Shown here piece after piece: positions 10,453 to 31,946 of a stretch of DNA of 32,000 nt. The notes under the pieces were generated by a model that worked only from the letters and a program-made list of their open reading frames with translations, ran no database searches and was not told where the DNA came from. A program made the translations under genes and the position numbers. The stretch is from Fibrobacter succinogenes subsp. succinogenes S85 (GTDB taxonomy: Bacteria > Fibrobacterota > Fibrobacteria > Fibrobacterales > Fibrobacteraceae), in contig NC_017448.1 in NCBI RefSeq assembly GCF_000146505.1, forward strand, positions 3,720,001 through 3,752,000. Reading direction: 5' to 3'. Numbering within the stretch: position 1 is the first letter of the stretch; each line of letters opens with the position of its first letter.

Positions 10453-10528
10453 TCCTCCCAACTCAAAAAAATAAGATTTCTGTCATTTAATGAGCAGTAA
10501 CCCTACAAAATTACAGAAATATTACTTA

Positions 10529-10536
10529 TATTTTTG
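10529..10536 (+). promoter_or_regulatory. Candidate -7 motif TATTTTTG upstream of the glycan locus
   Basis: Matches TAnnTTTG, about 90 nt before the aminotransferase ATG. It is the only such match in the 10453-10626 spacer. Confidence 0.3.
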
Positions 10537-10626
10537 CAACAATAGTTTAACATTCGACATAACTGGTCTGGGCGACGGTCGCCTTACCTTATATGTGTCG
10601 GAACTACCCCGAGGTTGCGGTAATCC

Positions 10627-11889
10627 ATGACGCGTTTCGAGAAGAAGGTCTGGCTCTCTAGCCCCACGATGCACGGCGACGAAATCAAGTACGTTACCGA
10701 GGCTTACGAAACCAACTGGATGAGCACCGTCGGCGCGAACATCAACGAGGTCGAAAGGCTCGCTGCCGAGAAGGTCGGCTGCAAGTACGCCGTCGCGCTC
10801 TCCGCAGGCACCGCCGCACTCCACCTCTGCACAAAGCTCGCTGGCGAAGCCCTTTACGGCATGCCCAAGGCGGGCGAAGGTTCGCTCCGCGGACACAAAG
10901 TGTTCTGCAGCGACATGACGTTCGACGCCACCGTGAACCCCATCGCCTACGAGAACGGCGAGGCCGTGTTCATCGACACCGAATACAAGACCTGGAACAT
11001 GGACCCGGTCGCCCTCGAAAAGGCTTTTGAAATTTACCCGGACGTGCGCCTGGTGGTACTCGTACACCTCTACGGAACCCCGGCCCGCGTTGACGAAATC
11101 CGCACCATCTGCCAAAAACACAACGCCCTCCTCATCGAAGACGCTGCCGAAAGCTTCGGTGCAAGCTACAAGGGCAAGCAGACCGGCAACTTCGGCGACT
11201 ACAGCGCCATCAGCTTCAACGGAAACAAGATTATCACAGGCAGTAGCGGCGGCATGTTCCTCACCGACAGCAAGGAAGACGCCGAAAAGGTGCGCAAGTG
11301 GAGCACACAGAGCCGCGAGGCCGCCCCGTGGTACCAGCACGAGGAAATCGGCTACAACTACCGAATGAGCAATGTGATTGCGGGCGTGGTACGCGGCCAG
11401 ATGCCCTACCTTGAAGAGCACATCGCTCAGAAAAAGGCCATCTACATGCGCTACAAGGAAGGCCTGAAAGGGCTCCCGGTGCAGATGAACCCCTACGACG
11501 CCGAGAACAGCGAACCGAACTTTTGGCTCAGCTGCCTGATCATCGACAAGGATGCCATGTGCAAGCAGGTGCGCGGCGAAACCGAGGCCCTTTACATCCA
11601 CGAAAAAGGCAAGAGCTGCCCGACGGAAATCCTCGAGCGCATCGCCGCCATGAACGCCGAAGGTCGCCCCATCTGGAAACCGATGCACATGCAGCCCATG
11701 TACATGAGCCACGCATTCATCACTGCCAACGGGAACGGTCGCGCCCGCACGAATGCCTACATCGCCGGAGGAATCCAAGATGTTGGTGCCGATATCTTTG
11801 CCCGCGGGCTCTGCCTCCCGAGCGACAACAAGATGACCCCCGAACAGCAGGACGCCATCATCCAGACCATCAAGGAATGCTTCGAGTAA
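10627..11889 (+). CDS. DegT/DnrJ/EryC1/StrS-family PLP-dependent sugar aminotransferase (EpsN/PglE/WcfR-like)
   Basis: 420 aa. SSPTMHGDE...Y, ALSAGTAALHL, EDAAESFGA and SFNGNKIIT (PLP lysine). GC-rich host-like codon usage. Confidence 0.85.
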   Translation: MTRFEKKVWLSSPTMHGDEIKYVTEAYETNWMSTVGANINEVERLAAEKVGCKYAVALSAGTAALHLCTKLAGEALYGMPKAGEGSLRGHKVFCSDMTFDATVNPIAYENGEAVFIDTEYKTWNMDPVALEKAFEIYPDVRLVVLVHLYGTPARVDEIRTICQKHNALLIEDAAESFGASYKGKQTGNFGDYSAISFNGNKIITGSSGGMFLTDSKEDAEKVRKWSTQSREAAPWYQHEEIGYNYRMSNVIAGVVRGQMPYLEEHIAQKKAIYMRYKEGLKGLPVQMNPYDAENSEPNFWLSCLIIDKDAMCKQVRGETEALYIHEKGKSCPTEILERIAAMNAEGRPIWKPMHMQPMYMSHAFITANGNGRARTNAYIAGGIQDVGADIFARGLCLPSDNKMTPEQQDAIIQTIKECFE

Positions 11890-15489: not shown

Positions 15490-16526
15490 AAGTGCTGCAT
15501 GTTGTAAATACAAATTGTTTTTCTGGCGCAGAAAATGTGGTATGCCAAATTATTGATGTCTTTAGAAATGACATGAATATGGCGTACTGTGGCCTTGAGG
15601 GACCGATTAGACAGGCTTTGGAAAAAAGAAATATTAAGTTTTTTCCTATTAAGAAAATGTCTGTGAGCTGTTTAAAAAAAGTGATAAAAGAATTTAAACC
15701 TGATGTTGTTCATTCCCATGATATGCGAGCTTCTTTTTTTACCTCGCTTGCGTGTGGAACAATTCCTCTTGTTTGTCATATTCATAATAATGCTTTTGAT
15801 TCAAGGGCGATAAGTTTAAAAAGCGTGTTGTTTTTGCTGGCAGCTCTAAAGGCTAAGCATATTTTTTGGGTCTCTGATAGCTCATTTGCCGGCTATTTCT
15901 TTCATCAGTTGTTTAAAAACAAAAGCTCAATTTTGTTGAATGTTATAAATGTTGAGTCCTTGATAAAGAAAAAGAATGAAGATTCTTGTGAATACGACTA
16001 TGATGTTGTCTTTGTAGGCCGTTTGACGTACCAAAAAAATACAGAACGCCTTATAGAAGTTTTACATAGATTGGTAGAGAAATGTCCAAATGTGAAATGT
16101 GGTATTGTTGGCGGTGGTGAATTAGCGAATGATACTTCAGATCTTATTAGAGAAAAATTGCTTGATAAGAATGTGTTTATGTTGGGATTTAAAGCTAATC
16201 CTTTGAAAATATTAAGTGACAGTAAGGTGATGCTGATGACCTCCCGTTGGGAGGGGTTACCAATGTGTGCCTTGGAAGCTTTGGCCTTGGGTGTTCCCGT
16301 TGTTTCGACTCCTGTTGATGGCTTGCTTTCTATAATTAATCAAGGTGAGAATGGCTTTTTAAGCGATAATAATGAGGAGCTAGTTGCGTTTTTAACACAG
16401 ATTGTTAATGACGATTCTTTTCGTGAAAAAATGTCAAGAAAGTGTGTAGAACTTAGTGGCGAATACAATGATTTATGTGAGTATAGACGCAATTTGAAAA
16501 GTGTTTACGACAATGCTTGCTGTTGA
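15486..16526 (+). CDS. Glycosyltransferase family 4 (GT-B)
   Basis: 346 aa. ATGA start/stop overlap with the upstream gene. FVGRLTYQKN and SRWEGLPMCALEALALGVPVVSTPVDG. Confidence 0.85.
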   Translation: MKVLHVVNTNCFSGAENVVCQIIDVFRNDMNMAYCGLEGPIRQALEKRNIKFFPIKKMSVSCLKKVIKEFKPDVVHSHDMRASFFTSLACGTIPLVCHIHNNAFDSRAISLKSVLFLLAALKAKHIFWVSDSSFAGYFFHQLFKNKSSILLNVINVESLIKKKNEDSCEYDYDVVFVGRLTYQKNTERLIEVLHRLVEKCPNVKCGIVGGGELANDTSDLIREKLLDKNVFMLGFKANPLKILSDSKVMLMTSRWEGLPMCALEALALGVPVVSTPVDGLLSIINQGENGFLSDNNEELVAFLTQIVNDDSFREKMSRKCVELSGEYNDLCEYRRNLKSVYDNACC

Positions 16527-18870
16527 AACCTTTATGCAGAATTACCTTAGAATCCCGTTTTCTGCTACAATTGCAATTCTGCCAATTTTAGCAGTGTATA
16601 AGTTTTTGCCTGGTGTATCCCTAGCATTCTTTCTATTGTGGTTATGTTTGTTTCCATTACTTTTTTTCTCAAATGAAGAAAAAAAATTTTCTTGGGAAGA
16701 ATATGTTTTTCTACTAAATATTGTAATTATATCTGTATTTGGTGCGATAGTTCATCTTACAATTGATAATGCTTGGTTTGATATAAACTTGTTTTTTCAT
16801 AACATGTTTAGTATTGTTTTATGCGTTATCCCGTTATGCATTGTTGTTAATTTGATTGATGTAAAAGTATTTGTAAAAACAGTGCTTTTTTTTGGTGTGG
16901 TTGTTTCCTTAGTTTTAATTTGGCAATGGGTTTTCTTGTTTTTGACAGGATCTTTTCAAAATGATGTCTTTATTCCTGGACTAGAATTGAATCGACGTGT
17001 TGAAACATTTGTTGTATATAGACCATCGTCTTTTTTTACTGAACCAGCACATTTTTCTATTTATGTGCTTCCAGCTTTTCAAATCGCATTGTTGCAAAAA
17101 AAATATATTTTGACTTATCTTTTTGCGCTGTCAATTTTGTGCTCGAGTAGTAGTACTGGATTTCTTATGTTGGGGATATTGCTTGTGTATCATTTATGTA
17201 AAATAGGTATGTCAAAGTGGTACCTTGCTATTGGCGTTTTGTTTTTGATTGTCCTGAGTATTGTCATCTGTTATTTCCTTTTTTCTGATATATTTTTGGT
17301 CAATATGAATAAGTTGTCTAGGATAAGCAAAGGAAGCTCTGATGACAGATTGTTTGGTCCGCTGGCTTATTTGTCGGCATTCAATGCCTGGGAACATATG
17401 TTCGGAATAACGCTGAATCAATTAGGTAATTTCTCAATTGTTGAAAATGCATGTGGCCTTTCAAAAAATTATGCAAATGCATTGATATATATGTACATTT
17501 CTTTTGGGTTGTTTGGGGTTATAAATTTTATTTTTTATATAGTGAGGAAATGGAGGTCGATTAAGGGGCCGCATGTTTTTTTCTTAATTTTTTTTGGAAT
17601 CTTTTGTACTGACCAAATTTTGTTTAATGCCCATTTCTTTTATTTAATGTGTTTTATTTTGTTGTCTGATCAAATATGTGCCAAATGTGCCAAACAAAAA
17701 AGTAAAGTAGGAAAAATGAAAGTACTATATCTTACTGTACCGTCTTTTTTTGATTTAGATATTTCTCTTGTTCGAGAAATGTCTGCGCTTGTTGATGTTC
17801 ATGTGCTGTTGGTTGTATCTCCACAATCTTTAAAATCTTCAGCTTTTTCAATTGAAAAAATTGATTCAAGATGTGAGATCTTTTCTGCAAATGAATATAA
17901 TGCTATTCAAAAGTATAAAGATGTTATAGATTTAAAGAAATGGTTTGTTGCAAATAATCCAGATAATAGTTTTTTTTCTTGCATCAAATTGTCTAAAAAA
18001 ATAAAAAATTTTATACGTCGGAACCATTTTGATATACTTCATGTTACTTCGGCGTGTAAAACGATATTTTTTTTAACTCCATTTATCTATTCTTTTCCGT
18101 ATACTTTGCTGACTGTTCATGATCCAATTGACCATGGGAATATATCTTGGTTTGAAAATTTCTTTAGACGAAAGATGTTTTACAGAGCGAATAAAAACGT
18201 CCTTCTTTTAAGCACGGCTCTTCTAGATTCGTTTTGTAAAAAATACCATGTGAAAAAAAATAGAATCTATTTTTCCTCATTAAGTGTTTATGATATATTG
18301 ACAACATTCAAAACAATGCGAAACATGTATGGAAACTATATTTTATTTTTCGGTAGGATTGAACCTTATAAAGGTGTTGATGTGCTAGTGACGGCTTATG
18401 AAAAATCGGAACTGCCTTCGAAAGGAATAAAACTAGTTATTGCAGGAAAGGGAAACTTGTGCATTACAGATTCTGACTTGTCTAAGGATGTAATTTTTAT
18501 TAATCGTTTTATTGAAAATGATGAATTGGCGAATTTAATTCGTCATTGTAAGTATGTTGTTTTGCCATACTTGTCGGCGACGCAGAGTGGTTGTGTGATG
18601 TCCGCTTTTGCATTTAACAAACCTGTTTTGGCGACAGATGTAGGTGATTTTCCATTGACAATAGAAAATAGTAAAACGGGAATGATTTGCGAAGCAAATA
18701 ATATTGACAGTCTGTGTAGGGCGATTAATGAAATGAGTAAAATAAATCTGGATATTTTGAGTGCGTGTATAAAAGAACGTTTTTGTGAAAATGGCCCTTT
18801 TTCATGGAGTAGTATTGCGAAATCGTTGTTTAATGTTTATGAATCAATTGTGCTTAATTCGAGGAATTGA
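16513..18870 (+). CDS. Single ORF fusing a Wzy-like O-antigen polymerase/ligase membrane domain (to about 17715) with a GT4 glycosyltransferase (from the in-frame ATG at 17716)
   Basis: The N-terminal ~400 aa is almost entirely hydrophobic helices (>=10 TM by eye). The C-terminal 384 aa starts MKVLYLTVPS and carries GRIEPYKGVDVL and SATQSGCVMSAFAFNKPVLATDVGD. There is no stop between them. AGGA lies 4 nt before the ATG at 17716. Alternative 5' starts are the GTG at 16501 and the ATG at 16534. Confidence 0.7.
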   Translation: MLAVETFMQNYLRIPFSATIAILPILAVYKFLPGVSLAFFLLWLCLFPLLFFSNEEKKFSWEEYVFLLNIVIISVFGAIVHLTIDNAWFDINLFFHNMFSIVLCVIPLCIVVNLIDVKVFVKTVLFFGVVVSLVLIWQWVFLFLTGSFQNDVFIPGLELNRRVETFVVYRPSSFFTEPAHFSIYVLPAFQIALLQKKYILTYLFALSILCSSSSTGFLMLGILLVYHLCKIGMSKWYLAIGVLFLIVLSIVICYFLFSDIFLVNMNKLSRISKGSSDDRLFGPLAYLSAFNAWEHMFGITLNQLGNFSIVENACGLSKNYANALIYMYISFGLFGVINFIFYIVRKWRSIKGPHVFFLIFFGIFCTDQILFNAHFFYLMCFILLSDQICAKCAKQKSKVGKMKVLYLTVPSFFDLDISLVREMSALVDVHVLLVVSPQSLKSSAFSIEKIDSRCEIFSANEYNAIQKYKDVIDLKKWFVANNPDNSFFSCIKLSKKIKNFIRRNHFDILHVTSACKTIFFLTPFIYSFPYTLLTVHDPIDHGNISWFENFFRRKMFYRANKNVLLLSTALLDSFCKKYHVKKNRIYFSSLSVYDILTTFKTMRNMYGNYILFFGRIEPYKGVDVLVTAYEKSELPSKGIKLVIAGKGNLCITDSDLSKDVIFINRFIENDELANLIRHCKYVVLPYLSATQSGCVMSAFAFNKPVLATDVGDFPLTIENSKTGMICEANNIDSLCRAINEMSKINLDILSACIKERFCENGPFSWSSIAKSLFNVYESIVLNSRN

Positions 18871-22766: not shown

Positions 22767-23741
22767 TTAGATGACGAATTTCTTGTTTTTGATTCTATCC
22801 AATTCACCCCTATCAAAAGCGGCAATATTTTCGACAGCCCCTCTCATCATACCCTGGAAGGTTTCAAAGGAAAGCCCAGCAATATGCGGTGTAAGGATTA
22901 CATTATCAAGCGTCTTTAGGGGATCATCTGCTAGCATAGGTTCTTCATAGTGGACGTCGAGCCCAGCAGAGCGAATCTTGCCGGAAACAAGCGCCTTATA
23001 CAGAGCATCTTCGTCAATAAGCTTGCCTCGTGCCGTATTCACTACAATGGCTCCATCCTTCATCTTTTCAAGGGCCACCGCATTTAAAATCTTTTGATTG
23101 TCCGCAGTCAGTGGGCAATGGAAAGAGAGAATATCCGCATCAGGCAGCAGTTCGTCAAATGAAGCCCGGAAAGAGATTCCCAAAGTCTTTTCGACATCTT
23201 CATTTTGGCGGAATATATCCGTATAGATAATGTTGGCTCCAAAAGCATGGAGAATACCAGCCGTAATGCGGCCTATGTTCCCCATGCCAACCATGGCAAC
23301 CGTCTTGCCAAAGAGTTCGTTACAGGAGACTCCAGTTTCCTGCTTTTTCCAAACGCCCTTCTTGACATTCGATGAAATCAGCGGAATGTTCTTGAGACAA
23401 TTTAGAATCAAAGTTACGGTATGCTCAGCCACACTACGGGCATTTATACCAGCATTCACATAAACGGGAATCTTTCGAGCCTTGATAGCTGCTTTGTCAA
23501 GCATTTCCGTACCAACACCTGTACGCTGAATCATTTTCAAGTTTTTTGCGGCAGTCAACACTTCTTCATTTATGAGCAGACGTCCGCTCACAAGAAAATA
23601 GTCGGCATCAACAGCTTCCTTGATAAGCTGTTCTTGCGTCGGTTCATCAAGGGTTTTGATTTCAAAACCTGCAGGGACGACGCTCTTGAGAATTTCCCAG
23701 GGTTTACCCGTGTACCGGTATGTGTGTAGAATTTTTGGCAT
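22767..23741 (-). CDS. D-isomer-specific 2-hydroxyacid dehydrogenase (NAD-binding; PGDH/glyoxylate reductase-like)
   Basis: 324 aa. GMGNIGRITAGIL Rossmann loop, NTARG, and TPHIAG (catalytic His). Its start overlaps the upstream acyltransferase by 38 nt. Confidence 0.85.
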   Translation of the reverse strand: MPKILHTYRYTGKPWEILKSVVPAGFEIKTLDEPTQEQLIKEAVDADYFLVSGRLLINEEVLTAAKNLKMIQRTGVGTEMLDKAAIKARKIPVYVNAGINARSVAEHTVTLILNCLKNIPLISSNVKKGVWKKQETGVSCNELFGKTVAMVGMGNIGRITAGILHAFGANIIYTDIFRQNEDVEKTLGISFRASFDELLPDADILSFHCPLTADNQKILNAVALEKMKDGAIVVNTARGKLIDEDALYKALVSGKIRSAGLDVHYEEPMLADDPLKTLDNVILTPHIAGLSFETFQGMMRGAVENIAAFDRGELDRIKNKKFVI

Positions 23742-24702
23742 AATAGATAATGTGTGAAATAAGCAAGGTTATAAAAACAACAATTAAAGGCAAAACATAC
23801 AACGCAACTACATTAGACGCAACACCGCAAAGTTCATAAACATGCTCCATAGTATGCCAAACAATTGGATGAATAATATACACGAACATAGAGTATCGTT
23901 TTCCTATTATTTGAAGAACCCCAGCATGTTTATTTGGATTGTTTACAGCATAGAGAAATAGACAAAATACTTGGGGAAAAGTAACTATGTTCACACCAAA
24001 ATCTCGCCCCATCAAAAATCTCTCTAACAAGCATAATACAGTACATACAATGGCGATAGCCATTACCCCCCCCCGTGTAAATTTCAGTTTACTTTTATAA
24101 GCATGTATCCAGTTTCCCATCGTAAAGAAACACAAACCCTCAACAAAAAAATTTCTATAGTACATATTTGGAATTTTTATTCCTGCAAGATGCATGCCTT
24201 GAGCTAGAAGTATATAAACAAAAATCATAATCGTTGCAACAACATAGATACTCTTAATTTTATGTACTCTTAAAACAAGAGCGAATAAAACATAATCATA
24301 CAACAAAGCAAATAAAAACCAGTATTGTCCCGCAACGACAAACGGCTGATTAAAAAGGAGCAAGTTAAGTAAAGCGCCTTTGCTAAAATAAAACACAGAT
24401 TTGCCAAATACAAAATATTGAACAAAGTCAAATAAAACATAGGCAACACATGCATACAAGGTTATTTTGCCCACATGCTTTATTTTTCTCGCCATATTGC
24501 TATTTATTTTCTCAGGATTTGCTGAAATAAAATAGCAGAAATAACCAGAAACCATAAAAAATAGCGGAACACAAAAACGGCTTACAGCTTGGACTACCGT
24601 TCCCAACAATCCAGGGAACTCGCAATGCATAAAAACTACGCAAATACACGCAATTCCTTTTATAAAATCCAAACAGTAATTATATTGTTTTGTTTCCGAC
24701 AT
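23704..24702 (-). CDS. Acyltransferase family 3 membrane protein (O-acyl/acetyltransferase), carries a G9 tract
   Basis: 332 aa, polytopic. N-terminal FIKGIACICVVFMHC and VPLFFMVSGY motifs of Acyl_transf_3. Very AT-rich (23% GC in one 60-nt spot count). Confidence 0.8.
   Translation of the reverse strand: MSETKQYNYCLDFIKGIACICVVFMHCEFPGLLGTVVQAVSRFCVPLFFMVSGYFCYFISANPEKINSNMARKIKHVGKITLYACVAYVLFDFVQYFVFGKSVFYFSKGALLNLLLFNQPFVVAGQYWFLFALLYDYVLFALVLRVHKIKSIYVVATIMIFVYILLAQGMHLAGIKIPNMYYRNFFVEGLCFFTMGNWIHAYKSKLKFTRGGVMAIAIVCTVLCLLERFLMGRDFGVNIVTFPQVFCLFLYAVNNPNKHAGVLQIIGKRYSMFVYIIHPIVWHTMEHVYELCGVASNVVALYVLPLIVVFITLLISHIIYYAKNSTHIPVHG
24066..24074 (-). repeat. Homopolymeric G9 tract (coding strand) inside acyltransferase 1; frame intact (ON)
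   Basis: C9 on the plus strand, encoding ..T-R-G-G-V.. at about codon 210. Confidence 0.9.
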
Positions 24703-24708
24703 CTTTGT

Positions 24709-25554
24709 TTACAGCTCCACAGTTGCCCTTCGCGGTTCAAAACAACAGCAGGGACGTAAGGCAACAATCCTAACACCACTCGCACGCTGCGGGCCAACTT
24801 TTGCAAACGTTGCAAGCACGCTAGTCTTGCCACCAAGCCCTAAAGCACCTACATTGGATTCGTTCACCCTTTCCGTGATCGTCTTTTCAAATTCAGACTG
24901 GAAGTCGTAATTGCCCTTGGCCATTGCTTCCATCATCATAGACGTTGCTTCAAACTGCGATCGTCCAATACCAACAGCCAATGTACACGGAGAGCAGCCT
25001 AACTGCGATACAGCCGGAATCGCACGAGCGACAATTTCATCAATCACCACTTGCACGCTATGCTTGTGAAACACGCGCTGCGTAATCCCACGAATAGCTG
25101 GACCACCACCAAGCATCAAAATAGTCAAACGCAAAACATCTTCTTCGACCGGCTTGATCAGAATCGGAGACGGAGCCAAAGCGCCAGAATCAGGATTCAA
25201 ACCGCCTGATTGATCAATACGGTGATAATCGTCGCCCAAAATCGCCATGGGGCGTCCTGGCAACTTGCGAAGTCCAGCCTCAATACCAGCGTGAATCTGA
25301 GCCAAAACATCTCCAGTAACCTGACGATTCGGACCAACCTCAATAAAGATATGTGGAATGCCGGTATCGTCGCACAAAGGCCCACGATTCTTTTCGGCAA
25401 CCAAAGCATTATCTAAAACCTGCTGCATCACCCAACAGCTATTCGTTCCCGGCTCTTTAGCAATAGCCCTGCGATACGCTTCTTTCTGGTCTTCCCTAAA
25501 GGTAGATCCAGCTTGTATCAAACATTCACAAACTTTCTGTTCAATATCTGTCAT
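24709..25554 (-). CDS. Fe-S type hydro-lyase alpha subunit (class I fumarate hydratase N-terminal / tartrate dehydratase TtdA-like)
   Basis: 281 aa. CDDTGIPHIFIEVG corresponds to the C-Q-D-T-G motif of class I fumarase/TtdA. Additional Cys residues (CSPC, CCC) are available for the cluster. Confidence 0.75.
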   Translation of the reverse strand: MTDIEQKVCECLIQAGSTFREDQKEAYRRAIAKEPGTNSCWVMQQVLDNALVAEKNRGPLCDDTGIPHIFIEVGPNRQVTGDVLAQIHAGIEAGLRKLPGRPMAILGDDYHRIDQSGGLNPDSGALAPSPILIKPVEEDVLRLTILMLGGGPAIRGITQRVFHKHSVQVVIDEIVARAIPAVSQLGCSPCTLAVGIGRSQFEATSMMMEAMAKGNYDFQSEFEKTITERVNESNVGALGLGGKTSVLATFAKVGPQRASGVRIVALRPCCCFEPRRATVEL

Positions 25555-25571
25555 AATTCACCACCCAAATG

Positions 25572-26651
25572 TTATAGCACCTTTCCTGTATAAATTTGCT
25601 TATCCCCTAATTTTTTATCTAAAAAATTGAATAGCGGCTTTTCCAATACATAAATACGGCAAATATCAATTATACTACAGGTTAGGAATATAGCAAGAAT
25701 ACTACCTATAGCATATAATGCATAAGAGGGTGCGTCATAATGTCCAACAACGTCAATAAAATCATACCATAACCAATGTCGCATTTCATCACCACTAGTA
25801 TGAATCAGGAACACACCAAAAGTCGAGGCTCCAATTATATTGATTATTCTAGAATAGCCGATTCTCAAATTTTTAAAGAACATAAACAGGGAAACTGAAG
25901 TTATTATAGACATGAAAGCCAAGGATTCTCCTACAAACGCATACACTGGCAAATTCAGCCTTAGACACACAAAAACAGACCCTATAGACAGGATTATTGA
26001 CACAAACGCCCCCCCCCAGAACATTACGTTTTCGTTTCTAAACAGCCCGTAAATGCGAATATACGAGCCTAAAATGTATAGTATAATAAACCACGATAAA
26101 TAATTATAATGCAGATGCAATCCCGGAATTTGATAGAAACCAGAATAAATAGTAATGCAAAGAATCAATAATAAAAGATGCTTTGTTTTATCCATTCCCT
26201 TTATTAGTATGTTTAAGAACGGTATAAACAAGAAAAAAGCCATAAACGCATTTGTGAACGAATCTGTAATACTAGAAAAAGGAAGTAAGCGTTTTAACAA
26301 GGCCCCACCAGATATAGCAGTCATCCCAACGCATGCAAAGACAAACAATATTATATACCTGTAAAATTTTACCTCTAGATATAATTTCAAGTATTTTCTC
26401 AAAGATATATTTGAAAAGCACATAAAAAAGCCAGTTATTAACACAAAACAATTAATACCGGTTTTCCCCCACATACCAAGAATCAAATAAAAAATAGAAT
26501 TTGTACTAGTAGGATTTGCAAACAAGGGACCATCGGCATTCATCAAGCCTGAATTAACCACATAATGATGAGCCACGATTGATAGCATCACTAAAATGCG
26601 ATACAGTTCAATATTCGACGAACGAGGCTTTTTTTTTACGATTTCAGTCAT
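25572..26651 (-). CDS. Acyltransferase family 3 membrane protein, carries a G9 tract; sits between the beta and alpha hydro-lyase genes
   Basis: The ATG at 26651 is 1 nt after the beta-subunit stop (TAGTATG). The track start at 26684 would overlap by 32 nt. ELYRILVMLSIVAHHYVV and polytopic hydrophobic repeats typical of Acyl_transf_3. Confidence 0.8.
   Translation of the reverse strand: MTEIVKKKPRSSNIELYRILVMLSIVAHHYVVNSGLMNADGPLFANPTSTNSIFYLILGMWGKTGINCFVLITGFFMCFSNISLRKYLKLYLEVKFYRYIILFVFACVGMTAISGGALLKRLLPFSSITDSFTNAFMAFFLFIPFLNILIKGMDKTKHLLLLILCITIYSGFYQIPGLHLHYNYLSWFIILYILGSYIRIYGLFRNENVMFWGGAFVSIILSIGSVFVCLRLNLPVYAFVGESLAFMSIITSVSLFMFFKNLRIGYSRIINIIGASTFGVFLIHTSGDEMRHWLWYDFIDVVGHYDAPSYALYAIGSILAIFLTCSIIDICRIYVLEKPLFNFLDKKLGDKQIYTGKVL
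26009..26017 (-). repeat. Homopolymeric G9 tract inside acyltransferase 2; frame intact (ON)
   Basis: C9 on the plus strand, encoding ..F-W-G-G-A.. at about codon 212. This is the same relative position as the tract in acyltransferase 1. Confidence 0.9.
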
Positions 26652-26652
26652 A

Positions 26653-27156
26653 CTAGTAAATACTCTCACCCTTTGCAGCTGCAATGATTGCCTGATACTT
26701 GTTAACCTTTATTCGGTGAAGCGCTTCCATCCCAAGTTCGGGATAGCAGACAACTTCTCGTTCTTCTGTCTGGCTTTCCAGCAAAGCCGTAACCGGAGGA
26801 ATCACCGCAAAAACGGCATTATTTTCAGCCAAGGCCTTAACCGTCTCTGGCTTGATGGCGCCCTTACCTAAGTGCATCTTGATACCATGGCGAGAAAGAG
26901 GTTCAAAGCTGCTTTCAATTTCCAACTTGTTACTGGAGGTGGGACCCACGCCCGCTGGACTCACCGCCGTATGGAAAATCACCTGCCCTTGTAAATCAAC
27001 ACCAACTTCAGAAAGAGTCCCTTCTTCGGCATGTTTCACAATTTTAGGCAAAACGGCATCGCGCCCTGTATAAATGTAACCGGAAATAGAAACAACATCA
27101 CCAACTTTGAGCTTGGCAATATCTTCTTCGCTAAATGGAGTTGTCAGTTCTATCAT
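26653..27156 (-). CDS. Fe-S type hydro-lyase beta subunit (fumarate hydratase class I C-terminal / TtdB-like)
   Basis: 167 aa. GDVVSISGYIYTGRDAVLPKI and the following beta-rich segment match the Fumerase_C-type subunit. ATGA overlap with the upstream PrpD-family gene. Confidence 0.75.
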   Translation of the reverse strand: MIELTTPFSEEDIAKLKVGDVVSISGYIYTGRDAVLPKIVKHAEEGTLSEVGVDLQGQVIFHTAVSPAGVGPTSSNKLEIESSFEPLSRHGIKMHLGKGAIKPETVKALAENNAVFAVIPPVTALLESQTEEREVVCYPELGMEALHRIKVNKYQAIIAAAKGESIY

Positions 27157-28490
27157 AACAGATTTATAACCTCGTCAATAGTAAACTCAGGACGATAAAC
27201 AATATCAATCAGCTTCTCACAAACATCCTTGCTATATCCAGCAAAAGACATCAAGCCCTCGATTTTCTGCCGAAATTCTTCTGGGGTCAGCGGATTTTCC
27301 GGTTCGCCCTTGGGATAATCAATCCTTGCGGAAAACAGCCCCGTTTTCGTTTTTACATCAACTAAAGCAGCACGGCGTTGTGGGCAGAGCGCAGTAAACT
27401 CATCATCCGCCACAACATCTATTTTTTGGGCAATATCAAGAATCCGCTGATCCGCGACATTAGCCTTCGAAAACTCGTTAAGCCCAGCATTTCCCGTAAA
27501 CAGAGCTACTGCAACACTATATGGCATACTCATTTTTGCGGAATTTACGCCATCCACTAGTTTATGGTCATGCCCCGCGACCGCAAGCTTATATGTATGA
27601 ACACAAACAGATTCTACTTCATCCAATAAAAAACCTGGTTGCTGACGAATTTTCATTGCGGCTTCAATTGCCGGATGTGTATGTCGACAAGAGGCATAAG
27701 GCTTGTTGTAAATAGACATGATGCTGAAAGAATCATTTTCAAAGTCCTTCAAAAAAGATATCTTTGCTTCATCAGTCATCACAGCCAAAAAGCCACGCTT
27801 GCCACCAAGAGCATCATTGGGCGCTTTAAATCGAGCTTTACCAAGATATGCAGCAGAAACGGCATCCATCGCCGCTCTACCAACATTCAACGGTTTTAAG
27901 TCAGCATTATCCTCCTGCATTTCAAGCACCCCGGCAGCGGACGTTACCGCGGCAGAAAAAGCGGACTTCATCTGTTCAAAATCAAAATGAAGTGCCGCAG
28001 CAATGGCCATAGTTGCCCCAACCGTTCCACATGTGCCCGTGGCGTGATATCCACGTAATTTGTTTCCCGGTTGTACCGCACAAGCCAAGCGAATCGTCGT
28101 TTCATAACCAATAATGGCTCCATACAAGAAATCTTGCATGGATATTTTTTCTTTTTCAGCAACAGGAAGCAGGGCCGAGAAAATAGTTCCTCCAACATGC
28201 ACCGCCCCCTTGCGATGACCGTCATCTAATTCCATAACATGCGAGTTCATTCCGTTTATCAATGCCGCCGTCTGTAGGGAACATTTGGGAGGCAAACCAA
28301 TAACCGAAGAAGCTCCATTACCGAATTCCAAAGAATCTATATAAGCGAGATCTTTTTCGTAAAAAGCTTTCGCTCCAGCCAAAGTGCATGCAAGAAAATC
28401 GATAAAACAATTCTTCGCCTGAGTAAAAACCTTTCCTGGAATGGAATCCTTTGATTGTTTTATCAAATTTTTCAAGAAGTTATCAGTCAT
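27153..28490 (-). CDS. MmgE/PrpD family protein (2-methylcitrate dehydratase superfamily)
   Basis: About 445 aa from the ATG at 28490 (the track TTG at 28511 is the alternative). The length and the ...NCFIDFLACTLAGA..., ...MELDDGHRKGAVHVGG... and ...KPYASCRHTHPAIEA... segments are characteristic of MmgE/PrpD. Confidence 0.8.
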   Translation of the reverse strand: MTDNFLKNLIKQSKDSIPGKVFTQAKNCFIDFLACTLAGAKAFYEKDLAYIDSLEFGNGASSVIGLPPKCSLQTAALINGMNSHVMELDDGHRKGAVHVGGTIFSALLPVAEKEKISMQDFLYGAIIGYETTIRLACAVQPGNKLRGYHATGTCGTVGATMAIAAALHFDFEQMKSAFSAAVTSAAGVLEMQEDNADLKPLNVGRAAMDAVSAAYLGKARFKAPNDALGGKRGFLAVMTDEAKISFLKDFENDSFSIMSIYNKPYASCRHTHPAIEAAMKIRQQPGFLLDEVESVCVHTYKLAVAGHDHKLVDGVNSAKMSMPYSVAVALFTGNAGLNEFSKANVADQRILDIAQKIDVVADDEFTALCPQRRAALVDVKTKTGLFSARIDYPKGEPENPLTPEEFRQKIEGLMSFAGYSKDVCEKLIDIVYRPEFTIDEVINLL

Positions 28491-28582
28491 TTGATTCTCA
28501 CAAAATTTCAATCCGTAATTTTAAACTTTTAACAAATAACATGCATCGAGTTTAGAAAAAAATATAAGATCTTTGTGTCATA

Positions 28583-29682
28583 TCAAATATTTACAGGTAC
28601 ATTTAACGACATTTGCTTTATCATAAGGCGACGAATTACATTCATTCGATGATTATACAGCTTACGGATTACTCCATAAAAAGGAGCTTTAACTAAAAAT
28701 CCACAAAAAGACATATGCAGTTTAAGCAAAAAGGAATAATACAATCCAAGAATGTTGTTAGGCGATAAGCTTACAAAAGTGTATCTTGATTTAATCTTAT
28801 GATCAATCTGTATTTCTGCAATCATACCAATTCTATTAAAGCTTTTCCAAATAACAAGAGATTTATTTTCGACCTTTTTCGGATAAGCCCATATTTTCTC
28901 TAATCCATTTAGAGAAGCTGGATAAAACATTGGCCTTGGAACATCCATACAAATATCAGGAAAAAGGAAGTTTCCTAAACTGAAAAAAATATCTTTTCCT
29001 TTATATTTCGTGTGTGGATTAATAACATGCGGATGACTTCCTATTATCGCATCAGCCCCTGCATCAATCATTTTTTTTGCATATTCATAGCAGTATGAAG
29101 GAGGGATAAAAACATGTTCTTCCGCCCAATGAGGTAGAACAACCACTTTGTCATAACTTTTTTTTAGTTCTGAGATGTTTTGTTGAATTTCCTCAATGGT
29201 CGTCTGATAAATGCCAAATTCTGTATCTGTCGCAGGATGAAAAATCATAGGAGCAAAGCCATGGAAACAGCATCCTATAAATGCCACCACCTGTCCGTCT
29301 TTCTTAATTACAGCTGGCTTACGCGCTTCTGAAAAGTTTTTCCCAGCTCCGCAAAAAAGAATCCCCTTTTGAGACAAGAGTTCAATTGTATGAACCATCC
29401 CTTCCAAGCCTAAATCTGAAAAATGATTATTGGCTAAAGTGACAAGATTTATGTTCATTTCTTGTAATTTTGCAAGGTCTTCGTCTCGAGCGTAAACAAT
29501 CGCTTTTGTCTTCGCCATTTTTCGTTCATCATAAGCAAAATGATTGCCAATCGCACATTCTAAAGTTCCTATTCTAAAATCAAATGTAGACATATACTCC
29601 AATAATTCCTTGGTTATAAAGGAATCTTGATAGGAGAGCCCCCCCCCCCAGGAACAATATCTCCACAAAATAGTAAATTCAC
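28583..29682 (-). CDS. CapA/PGA_cap-family metallophosphoesterase; reading frame broken at a G11 tract (phase-OFF as sequenced)
   Basis: The body frame (28583-29638) shows CapA-like motifs (TLECAIG, ANNHFSDLG, GSHPHV). Upstream of the tract a different frame reads GTG-NLLFCGDIVPGGGG, starting at the GTG at 29682 that overlaps the upstream TGA (GTGA). G12 or G9 would join the two frames. Confidence 0.7.
29639..29649 (-). repeat. Homopolymeric G11 tract at codons ~12-15 of the CapA-like gene
   Basis: C11 on the plus strand, counted directly (29639-29649). Confidence 0.9.
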
Positions 29683-30782
29683 TTTAGTATCGCCTCTTTG
29701 AATTCATCATAAAAACCACGACCGAGAGAAATCTGAGGCATAATTATATCACCCCAATTTCCTTCGATTAGCACCCATCCCTGAGTAGACAAAGCAAAAT
29801 CAAAACCAATATATTTATGACATTCAGGCAATGACTTATGAACTTCTTGTGCAAATTTTTTTAAAGATTCCCATTCAGGAATTTTATATCCTTTAAATAC
29901 TTTATTACTTTCTGGGTGTTCCTTGAAAACTCGGCCTAATTCATCATGACCATCAGTTATGATGATACCAGTATTCGAATCTATCGCTGCAAAAACGCCA
30001 CCGCAACCAGCATTGTCAACGACACTTCCTTTTCGCCCTACTCGTAACACGGAAACCATTGTTGAAAAATCAGAGCCCTTTCGAAAAGAAAAATAACGAA
30101 TTGTATTGACACTGGATTCGTTCCACTCGGCCATTCTAGCATCTTGTTTGACAAGTTCTTCTACGATATATGAGCCATTAGAGCGCAAGTAGTCAAAAAC
30201 CTCATCAGCACTCTTTTCCAACAACGAGATAATTTCAACGCCTTTGCCACAAGCCCCCTTGCTTGGTTTTGCTATAAAACGATCAAGTCCTTGACAAAAA
30301 AGTTTAAAATTAGACCTATCATCCTCACTATCTACTTTACAAGCTTTCCGTTTAAAGAACTGACCTGCAATTGAATAGAAAATATTTTTGTCTTTTAATT
30401 GCGCTAAAGCATCCTTCCAATTTTTTCCAATTGCTTCCATGCAAAGTTTATCTTTTCGCATACGTGAAATATATTTATTTCGTTCATATGCATTTTTCTT
30501 TGGGAATCCATATGAAAAGTATTCATTAGCCGTCATTCCATACTTTCTATAAGACAGTATGATATCTCGAATAACAGATTTTCTATATGCAGAATCATCC
30601 AACTGCTCCTTACTCAAGAATATCTTACAGTTATCCTCTATATCGGAAAAACAATCTCGTTGGCCCCACCAAACAATCTTTTTTTTCTTAGCATTATTGT
30701 ATAAGCGATCTGCCATATAAGTAGGAAATATGTTCCACTTAGCTTTATTCATCAAATCTTTAATTCTACGAACAATTTTCAT
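29679..30782 (-). CDS. Sugar-transfer-associated ATP-grasp (ATPgrasp_ST / alpha-L-glutamate ligase-related) protein
   Basis: 367 aa. AKPSKGACGKGVEII, VEELVKQD...SVNTIRYFSF, VDNAGCGGVFAAIDSNTGII, IPEWESL and IGFDFALSTQGWVLIEGN. Confidence 0.8.
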   Translation of the reverse strand: MKIVRRIKDLMNKAKWNIFPTYMADRLYNNAKKKKIVWWGQRDCFSDIEDNCKIFLSKEQLDDSAYRKSVIRDIILSYRKYGMTANEYFSYGFPKKNAYERNKYISRMRKDKLCMEAIGKNWKDALAQLKDKNIFYSIAGQFFKRKACKVDSEDDRSNFKLFCQGLDRFIAKPSKGACGKGVEIISLLEKSADEVFDYLRSNGSYIVEELVKQDARMAEWNESSVNTIRYFSFRKGSDFSTMVSVLRVGRKGSVVDNAGCGGVFAAIDSNTGIIITDGHDELGRVFKEHPESNKVFKGYKIPEWESLKKFAQEVHKSLPECHKYIGFDFALSTQGWVLIEGNWGDIIMPQISLGRGFYDEFKEAILK

Positions 30783-30812
30783 CTTATGAATTCCAATTTT
30801 GCACTATAATGA

Positions 30813-31946
30813 TTATACACCGAATAATTCCAGATAACTCTTTTCAGACTCTATTACGCCATAGGCTTCGGCACGCATTGAAATCTTTGTCGCCCAGTTG
30901 GTATGAGGCTTGATTTCGTTCATGCCCTTGCTGCCCTTAATCACCCCACCGGAAGTATGCAAAATCTGGTAGGCGTCATTGTATTCATCTTGCGTAACAG
31001 CAAGCATGCCATTGATGAAGTTCAAGTGGGTCGGATGGATACATGTCTTGCCCATAAAACCATTCGCCTGGTCCAGAATAAGTTCGCGCATCAAGCCATC
31101 AACCGCATCATTTACCACCGGCGAACGTTTCAGCAACGTATCTTGGATGTCAACCTTCGGCAGATCGCAAAACTTCATACGCTTGTTTACACGGAAATAT
31201 TCCCACACCGGTCCAGAAACTGTATAATCGTTGTTACGGGTAAAGAAGTTCAAAATATCCATCAAGCAATCACGAACAGTCATCACATCGTAAATCGTAT
31301 AGTTGATTCCTCTACGGACACCAAAGCACGACGAGAAATCCGTACCGCCCACGCGAATATTCAAAATCAGGTCTTTATGTTTGTCGCATTCCTGTTTGAT
31401 AGCCATCAGTTCCTGAGCGCGGCTTTCCTTGAACGCGACTCGCGCATCTTCAATAATGGGCATGCCATATATAATCTCACCAAACTTGGCATTGAGTTCA
31501 ACAAGGTGTTCCATATAAGGAGCGGATGTCAAGCTATTGAATTTCGGAAAATTAAACCCGCAAAGATACCGAATGTGACGAGGCTCAAGCATCGCAGCAA
31601 AATGCTTAAACTGTTCAACGGAACGAACCCGGAAGAAAATTAGCGGAATATCTTCGTATTTCAGCGTTCCATTTTTTTCACATTCCGCAAGAGTGTCCAA
31701 CACATGGATAGAATTGATTTCCGCAGCAGGCACGTCTTCTTCTTTGCAGGCATCTTCGAAGCACATCACCATGGAGGTGAGACCAGGATACTTCTTATCG
31801 ATAATCGCCTGTGCAAAATCCTTGGTGCCAGGCATATACATAGTGGCCCCCAGGCAATATTGCAAAAGACTACGGTCCGTATACTTGTTGAAATCGACCG
31901 GTTCTTTTACAAACTTGAAATTCGGATTATACTGATGATGTTTCAT
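30813..31946 (-). CDS. HpcH/HpaI aldolase / citrate lyase beta (CitE)-like TIM-barrel C-C lyase
   Basis: 377 aa. MYMPGT, MCFEDA (metal-binding acidic pair) and GKTCIHPTH (compare CitE GK..IHP.Q). It is longer than canonical CitE, resembling the extended C-C bond lyase subgroup found next to ATP-grasp genes. Confidence 0.7.
   Translation of the reverse strand: MKHHQYNPNFKFVKEPVDFNKYTDRSLLQYCLGATMYMPGTKDFAQAIIDKKYPGLTSMVMCFEDACKEEDVPAAEINSIHVLDTLAECEKNGTLKYEDIPLIFFRVRSVEQFKHFAAMLEPRHIRYLCGFNFPKFNSLTSAPYMEHLVELNAKFGEIIYGMPIIEDARVAFKESRAQELMAIKQECDKHKDLILNIRVGGTDFSSCFGVRRGINYTIYDVMTVRDCLMDILNFFTRNNDYTVSGPVWEYFRVNKRMKFCDLPKVDIQDTLLKRSPVVNDAVDGLMRELILDQANGFMGKTCIHPTHLNFINGMLAVTQDEYNDAYQILHTSGGVIKGSKGMNEIKPHTNWATKISMRAEAYGVIESEKSYLELFGV

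Follow-up and report, generated by a model that had tools for sequence, protein, structure and literature searches.

A poly-G tract between the start and the body of a CapA-like gene in Fibrobacter succinogenes S85: a probable slippage-prone switch found in its OFF state

Results

A run of 11 G separates the start of a CapA-like gene from its body

A window of 32,000 nucleotides from Fibrobacter succinogenes subsp. succinogenes S85 (RefSeq assembly GCF_000146505.1, contig NC_017448.1, positions 3,720,001 to 3,752,000) was analysed, and all coordinates given here are those of this window. On its minus strand lies a gene for a CapA-like protein, carrying the Pfam domain PGA_cap, in which a run of 11 G (G11) places the start codon and the gene body in different frames. 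A preliminary description of this DNA had read the gene as phase-OFF. From 29685 to 29625, the minus strand reads aaaGTGAATTTACTATTTTGTGGAGATATTGTTCCT, 11 G, then CTCTCCTATCAAGAT. In agreement with that description, the list of open reading frames (ORFs) and the letters themselves indicated a GTG start at 29682 in a coupled-start overlap, as GTGA, with the stop codon (TGA, 29681-29679) of the upstream gene ATPgrasp_ST. This overlap is kept as ATGA in the relatives (loci L018-L024). Translation from the GTG gives M-N-L-L-F-C-G-D-I-V-P and then enters the G tract, the body being in another frame, also as described; the resulting peptide, which had been put at about 23 codons, counts 22.

Re-translation of the gene with different tract lengths confirmed that 9 or 12 G would join the two segments. 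G9 generated a single ORF of 365 amino acids and G12 one of 366, and the out-of-frame lengths led to a stop after 33 (G10), 22 (G11) or 34 codons (G13). The body ORF (28583-29668) is open from the TTG at 29668, which gives 361 amino acids, and from the ATG at 29593, which gives 336. These two had been named as the only starts in the body frame; both are present, but a third one, TTG at 29602-29600 (GAA TTA TTG GAG TAT ATG), was found, and it is likewise downstream of the Gly-Asp (GD) motif encoded in the GTG frame. Both public annotations of the window's assembly present the gene as an ordinary CapA with a shortened N-terminus, and their product names show no frameshift. The features are listed in Table 1.

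Table 1. Coordinates of the features of the CapA-like gene and of the two acyltransferase tracts in the window.
Feature	Position	Strand	Remarks
ATPgrasp_ST (sugar-transfer associated ATP-grasp) gene, upstream	29679..30782	-	Pfam PF14397, E 3.5e-44
GTG start, full-length CapA-like gene	29680..29682	-	orthologues (84% identity) share the position, with ATG; the annotated 365-amino-acid product of CP001792 starts here
TTG, GenBank start	29666..29668	-	361 amino acids, ADL25895.1, MWRYCSWGGGLSYQD...; without the F-x-G-D block
G11 homopolymer (C11 on the plus strand)	29639..29649	-	codons 12-15; frameshifting tract
OFF-state frame	29614..29682	-	MNLLFCGDIVPGGGGSPIKIPL, 22 codons and TAA at 29616-29614; carries strand β1 and the G7-D8 motif
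Internal ATG, RefSeq start	29591..29593	-	336 amino acids, WP_157747962.1; residues 1-29 missing
PGA_cap (CapA-like) gene body	28583..29638	-	frame differs from the GTG frame here; stop at 28585-28583
G9 tract, first acyltransferase-3 gene (25572-26684)	26009..26017	-	codon 223, in frame here
G9 tract, second acyltransferase-3 gene (23704-24702)	24066..24074	-	codon 210, in frame here

The N-terminal block is a conserved part of the PGA_cap fold

To score the two forms of the protein, the Pfam profile PGA_cap (PF09587) was used. The protein repaired at the tract matched it with 184.7 bits (cut-off 27; E 2.8e-54) over profile positions 2-254, and the product of the ATG at 29593 over positions 38-254 only. 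Coverage of the N-terminal part of the profile was thus seen in the repaired frame only, as had been anticipated, and a complete PGA_cap domain in one frame is absent from the window but present in the G9 allele of S85. Homologues recovered by a search of 5.8 billion proteins are 360-380 amino acids long and begin with M-x-[ILV]-L-F-x-G-D-I-M-P-G-G-V-L-P-Y-Q-D. In an alignment of 65 sequences, G7 and D8 were found in 61/61 homologues having an N-terminus, and G12 and G13 were invariant. The assignment of the GD block to the N-terminus of the CapA family by the preliminary description is therefore upheld, and a family lacking the F-x-G-D block is not what the alignment displays. At the tract, the S85 G9 protein matches the length of the family, with PGGGL against PGGVL.

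The sole solved PGA_cap relative is MslH, a lasso-peptide C-terminal Trp epimerase (PDB 8GQ9, 8ITG). Alignment to MslH paired D8 with Asp11, E41 with Glu44, N85 with Asn87, H86 with His88, D89 with Asp91, H184 with His259 and H218 with His295, all of these being conserved. In MslH, Asp11 and His295 form one of two catalytic dyads, the D11A substitution abolishes activity, and the equivalent of Asp11 in the phosphodiesterase YmdB is Asp8, a metal ligand (PMC10406935). The AlphaFold2 model of the G9 protein reached a predicted local distance difference test (pLDDT) of 94.1 and a predicted template modelling score (pTM) of 0.93. In this model, strand β1 is formed by residues 2-9 and the tract-encoded glycines 12-14 are in a loop, where a 10-residue block averages a pLDDT of 75. 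Foldseek searches with the model retrieved MslH (E 5e-18, TM-score 0.65, query-normalised), YmdB and 5'-nucleotidases, corresponding to a calcineurin-like fold. The product of the ATG at 29593 starts at residue 30 and is likely to be inactive, since it would be devoid of strand β1, Asp8 and the following loop; Pfam coverage, which begins at position 38, and the structure model both exclude that this ATG gives a complete domain.

Two closer functional assignments were rejected. The protein is not a CapA of poly-gamma-glutamate synthesis in the functional sense, because neither CapB/PgsB nor CapC/PgsC is encoded in the window or in the related loci. Nor is it an orthologue of MslH, as it scored 89.1 bits against an equivalog cut-off of 700 for NCBIfam NF038314.

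A shorter version of the CapA-like gene was noticed in a metagenome strain with 97% identity (L005-L008, e.g. L006 10001-10837). There, the gene ends at 278 amino acids (...SLVIC) and is directly followed by the PrpD gene. The C-terminal 87 residues absent there are modelled in S85 as strands and helices.

The tract has 9 G in the other S85 sequences

Three kinds of S85 assemblies were compared: the window's assembly (3,843,004 bp), CP001792 (3,842,635 bp) and the Logan read-set assemblies. The exact G9 product of 365 amino acids is annotated in CP001792 (ACX76249.1 / WP_015732373.1) and 86 blocks of public assemblies contain it, the neighbouring genes being found in 81 and 85. At the DNA level, the CapA tract was G9 in S85 loci L001-L004 and L009-L016, and in the 97%-identical strain. 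Apart from indels at G tracts, L001-L004 and L009-L015 showed zero mismatches with the window over identical stretches of 6.4 to 13.4 kb. Similarly, CP001792 (L025) compared with window positions 4383-25487 (21.1 kb) displayed zero substitutions and two indels. Over positions 4383-32000 (~27.6 kb), the window and the other S85 sequences are separated by zero substitutions and four indels, three of which are the three long G tracts of the operon, the fourth being a run of six A instead of five (A6/A5) at 17696-17701. Genomes of a single strain that show no substitutions in the overlaps thus differ in tract length, the G11 state resting on one assembly.

The in-frame version that the preliminary description had suggested looking for therefore exists, in CP001792 and in the 86 assembly blocks, within flanking DNA that is otherwise identical. 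A fixed pseudogene, in the sense that all relatives would carry G11, is excluded, as no relative shares G11. The gene had also been described as one nucleotide from ON. This is formally true for G12, but the G12 allele was never seen and the ON allele observed, G9, is two bases away.

A 336-amino-acid product was also called on a contig of SRR29904083, available as a protein record only. It is ambiguous as a second OFF case, because L005 has G9 and yet its gene is called from the internal ATG. None of the Logan contigs breaks at the CapA tract, unlike at the acyltransferase tracts. A search of genome contigs with the 365-amino-acid protein led to one 35%-identical locus of Terriglobia and to no Fibrobacter genome, and two DNA patterns (both flanks with a variable gap; left flank with GGG) had no match in the metagenome contigs of the Joint Genome Institute.

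The only difference outside the G tracts in these ~27.6 kb is found in the plus-strand ORF 16501-18870, where A6 at 17696-17701 in the window stands against A5 in both CP001792 and the Logan S85 contigs. Through the additional A, a 398-amino-acid gene without Pfam match is joined to a GT1 glycosyltransferase (384 or 394 amino acids as called), giving an ORF of 789 amino acids. Either a true mutation in this stock or an error of assembly may explain it.

Two acyltransferase genes of the same operon carry G tracts of variable length

The lengths of the three tracts in the data sets that allow their comparison are given in Table 2. In both finished S85 genomes the two acyltransferase genes are in frame, with G9 in one genome and G12 in the other; the product of the first gene in CP001792 is ACX76246.1. 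Beyond the data sets of the table, G12 was read at the first tract in L012 and L013, and at the second in L026 and L027.

Table 2. Number of G residues at the three tracts in S85 data sets.
Data set	CapA-like gene	First acyltransferase	Second acyltransferase
Window	11	9	9
CP001792	9	12	12
SRR5185596 (L009)	9	12	12
SRR5194749 (L010)	9	10	13
SRR32643343 (L011)	9	12	10
SRR5194756 (L004)	9	11	not covered

Eighteen Logan contigs break off within the second acyltransferase tract, with a product ending in ...FTRGGG, and several others stop within ~15 to 45 bases of a tract. Such contig ends fit with length heterogeneity of the longer tracts or with reads of low quality across them. Divergent strains have a tract of G8 or G9 at the corresponding site of the second acyltransferase gene, and in the 97%-identical strain the tract is interrupted (CGGGGTGGGTG). 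An exact look-up of contigs encoding the 332-amino-acid second acyltransferase gave no record, and cluster membership was used in its place.

In S85, the first acyltransferase gene (25572-26684) is flanked by the Fumerase_C and Fumerase subunit genes. The 97%-identical strain (L005-L007) and the 84%-identical L018, L019 and L022 do not have it there. This gene therefore looks like a strain-specific insertion with its own G tract.

The window has more long G tracts than expected by chance, all in one operon

From the base frequencies of the window, 0.003 G/C runs of at least 11 are expected, and the same arithmetic gives ~0.06 for runs of at least 9, of which three are present. The spectrum of G/C runs comprises ten runs of 5, zero of 6-8, and then 9, 9 and 11. 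The three long runs share one minus-strand operon, and in each of them the coding strand carries the G.

Relatives at 84% protein identity have CCTGGGGGTGTG or CCTGGGGGCGTA at the site of the CapA tract, that is CCT GGG GGT GTG TTG CCC or CCT GGG GGC GTA TTG CCC (P-G-G-V-L-P), with no long run. S85 and the 97%-identical strain, the latter in four metagenome assemblies, have CCT GGG GGG GGG CTC TCC. The tract therefore arose by T-to-G changes. Position 14 of the family is V or I in 60/65 homologues and Gly in S85 only, and GGG is the least used Gly codon in the genes of the window (13.6%). The rare codon, the lost Val or Ile and the recurrence of tracts would suit a selection for a mutable tract, without proving it.

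The operon belongs to a surface-polysaccharide locus

The neighbours of the CapA-like gene encode ATPgrasp_ST, a C-C bond lyase, MmgE/PrpD, fumarase subunits, a 2-hydroxyacid dehydrogenase, acyltransferases, glycosyltransferases and a flippase. With its flippase, glycosyltransferases, Wzi and aminotransferase, the locus is of the surface-polysaccharide type. Across related loci, the constant partner of the CapA-like gene is the overlapping ATPgrasp_ST, an ATP-grasp amide ligase, and one may speculate that the CapA-like enzyme makes or modifies an amide-linked side group of the surface polysaccharide. A consensus scan for promoters and terminators in the region of the CapA tract returned matches at background level only.

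Several other features of the locus were observed. The minus-strand region 22767-31946, like L009 1-10000, encodes a C-C bond lyase (CitE/RipC-like), MmgE/PrpD, class-I fumarase-type alpha and beta subunits and a D-2-hydroxyacid dehydrogenase. This set of organic-acid enzymes, which adjoins two ATP-grasp ligases, an aminotransferase, a flippase and pyruvyl transferases, suggests the synthesis of an acid side group. At 10522-11889, a 420-amino-acid DegT aminotransferase on the plus strand is almost fully overlapped by an antisense ORF of 418 amino acids without Pfam match. Gene callers differ there in identical DNA (L025 versus L026/L027), the following Bac_transf gene being cut from 206 to 101 amino acids, and these antisense calls are probably an annotation artefact. 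In the 84%-identical strains, the related polysaccharide locus contains a transposase pair, HTH_Tnp_1 and rve (L018 and L019, 14298-15134). The gene order of L018 and L019 is also unlike that of S85, the fumarase, acyltransferase and dehydrogenase genes preceding the ATP-grasp/CapA pair.

Discussion

Taken together, these results indicate that the G tract of the CapA-like gene is likely to be a genuine length switch, prone to slippage and hypermutable, that was caught OFF in the window. Replication slippage would alter the length of the G run. With G9, the ON allele observed, or with G12, a predicted ON allele with one extra loop glycine, translation from the GTG, coupled to the termination of ATPgrasp_ST, would give a complete enzyme of 365 (or 366) amino acids whose first strand ends in Gly-Asp. 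With G11, translation would terminate after 22 codons, or after 33 with G10, and no active enzyme would be made. The rest of the gene would then be reached through internal starts only, leading to a protein without strand β1 and Asp8, which is predicted to be inactive. The premature stop might in addition lower the expression of the downstream genes, namely those for MmgE/PrpD, the fumarase subunits, the acyltransferases and the 2-hydroxyacid dehydrogenase. We infer replication slippage as the cause of the change, together with its reversibility and rate, the loss of function in the OFF state and a phenotype. The preliminary description had regarded the frame arrangement as direct support for a phase-variable switch; ON and OFF alleles in one strain now speak for this, but reversible switching at high frequency is more than a comparison of sequences can establish.

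Several observations weigh against such a switch and have to be set beside it. G11 was read in DNA in the window's assembly only, and G9 in every other S85 data set as well as in four metagenome contigs of the 97%-identical strain. Within this sampling, a CapA tract of length 9 is thus stable. The G12 product is absent from the protein collection searched, and the Logan S85 runs may be of either DNA or RNA. Logan assemblies also contain some noise, as single contigs showed variants at the tract edge (REGG, GGGGF or GGGRF) and two short contigs carried A8 and T7 frameshifts. Finally, the private extra A in a short A5 run means that indel errors are possible in the window's assembly. It is therefore conceivable, though unlikely, that the homopolymer was miscounted, the culture really having G9 with an intact gene and G11 being an error of base calling or assembly. 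Such a miscount would agree with the G9 of ~85 other S85 data sets and of the other finished genome, with the second private indel at 17696-17701, and with the quality of CP001792, which appears nearly error-free by an independent resequencing of S85 that found 8 differences genome-wide, none of them at these tracts (PMC5442110). However, it would require two bases to be added at the CapA tract and three to be removed at both acyltransferase tracts, both genes remaining in frame in both finished genomes. In addition, the window has 35 A or T runs of 7-9 bases, and those covered by the compared loci all keep their length; the acyltransferase tracts, moreover, vary (10, 11, 12, 13) among independent Illumina-type assemblies too.

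Equally improbable in our view is a one-off slippage event fixed in one laboratory stock, in which case the tract would be a mutational weak spot and the gene a recent pseudogene, with no evolved reversible switch operating in the rumen. Laboratory culture lifts selection on surface polysaccharides. The invariance of G9 in the other S85 data sets and in the four natural contigs of the related strain would be expected from such an event, as would the in-frame state of every tract-bearing gene in metagenome consensus sequences. A single accident accounts poorly, however, for three long G tracts grouped in one operon when 32 kb contain zero runs of 6-8, for a CapA tract that uses the least frequent Gly codon and displaces a conserved Val or Ile, for the retention of the second acyltransferase tract in divergent strains, and for acyltransferase tracts of several lengths, in and out of frame, across data sets. 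It is very unlikely that G11 is not truly OFF, some full-length protein being produced at a reduced level by RNA polymerase slippage or ribosomal frameshifting. Long homopolymers are sites of transcriptional slippage, the tract comes as early as codon 12, and translation in the shifted frame passes through it before reaching a stop. No frameshift-stimulating signal was found, the consensus scan of the region remaining at background level, and the dominance of in-frame G9 in all data sets would be needless if decoding tolerated changes in length.

We therefore favour a slippage-prone switch. Because G tracts are also present in two acyltransferase genes of this operon, the whole locus behaves as a multi-gene contingency locus would, varying the decoration of a surface polysaccharide. 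It is possible, and we propose it tentatively, that the CapA-like enzyme and the two O-acyltransferases form an evolved multi-gene poly-G phasome generating stochastic cell-surface decoration in the rumen, which would be the first simple sequence repeat (SSR) contingency system described in Fibrobacterota and in a fibre-degrading commensal. If so, this phasome might trade evasion of phages or protozoa against adhesion to cellulose. A full-text literature search gave no report of phase variation or homopolymer switching for Fibrobacter, and the S85 genome paper mentions neither frameshifts nor homopolymers.

If the switch is real, a major rumen cellulose degrader would diversify its surface by the same bet-hedging device as mucosal pathogens, in which homopolymer frameshift switching is textbook knowledge. 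It would also bear on fibre adhesion, on phage resistance and on how reproducible work on the type strain is from one laboratory stock to another. The two S85 reference genomes encode differing sets of intact surface-modification genes, which matters for transcriptomics, proteomics and modelling based on one reference.

Among known systems, the Bacillus CapA/PgsA of poly-gamma-glutamate synthesis, from which the name CapA derives, shares the Pfam PGA_cap domain with the S85 protein, which unlike it has no CapB/PgsB or CapC/PgsC nearby. MslH has the same calcineurin-like fold and the conserved aligned active-site residues, including the N-terminal Asp needed in MslH. It differs by an identity of only ~20%, by a His261 without counterpart in S85 and by its lasso-peptide cluster, the S85 gene lying in a context of polysaccharide synthesis.

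As to the switch itself, siaD of Neisseria meningitidis is phase-variable through a poly-C tract. Vibrio cholerae O1 has poly-A tracts in O-antigen genes that lead to phase variation (PMC3441752). In these two systems, as in S85, a frameshift in a coding homopolymer turns off a surface-polysaccharide gene, and revertants there restore the frame; the whole polysaccharide is lost with a proven phenotype, whereas the S85 step is probably a side-chain modification. The closest likeness is to Campylobacter jejuni, where poly-G SSRs drive phase variation of genes for capsule and lipooligosaccharide modification (PMC8437040, PMC6321876, PMC8355987). Both have intragenic G runs of at least 9 in several genes of one surface-polysaccharide locus, the length of which sets the frame ON or OFF, sibling cultures with different combinations of lengths, and decoration enzymes instead of backbone synthesis as targets. 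Unlike C. jejuni, a pathogen of the Campylobacterota, S85 is a rumen cellulose degrader of the Fibrobacterota, its target is a PGA_cap enzyme, its system is known from sequences alone, and its CapA tract looks stable at G9 across ~85 data sets. Intragenic homopolymer phase variation of surface-polysaccharide genes is a well-known class of mechanism, and what is new here is its Fibrobacter setting.

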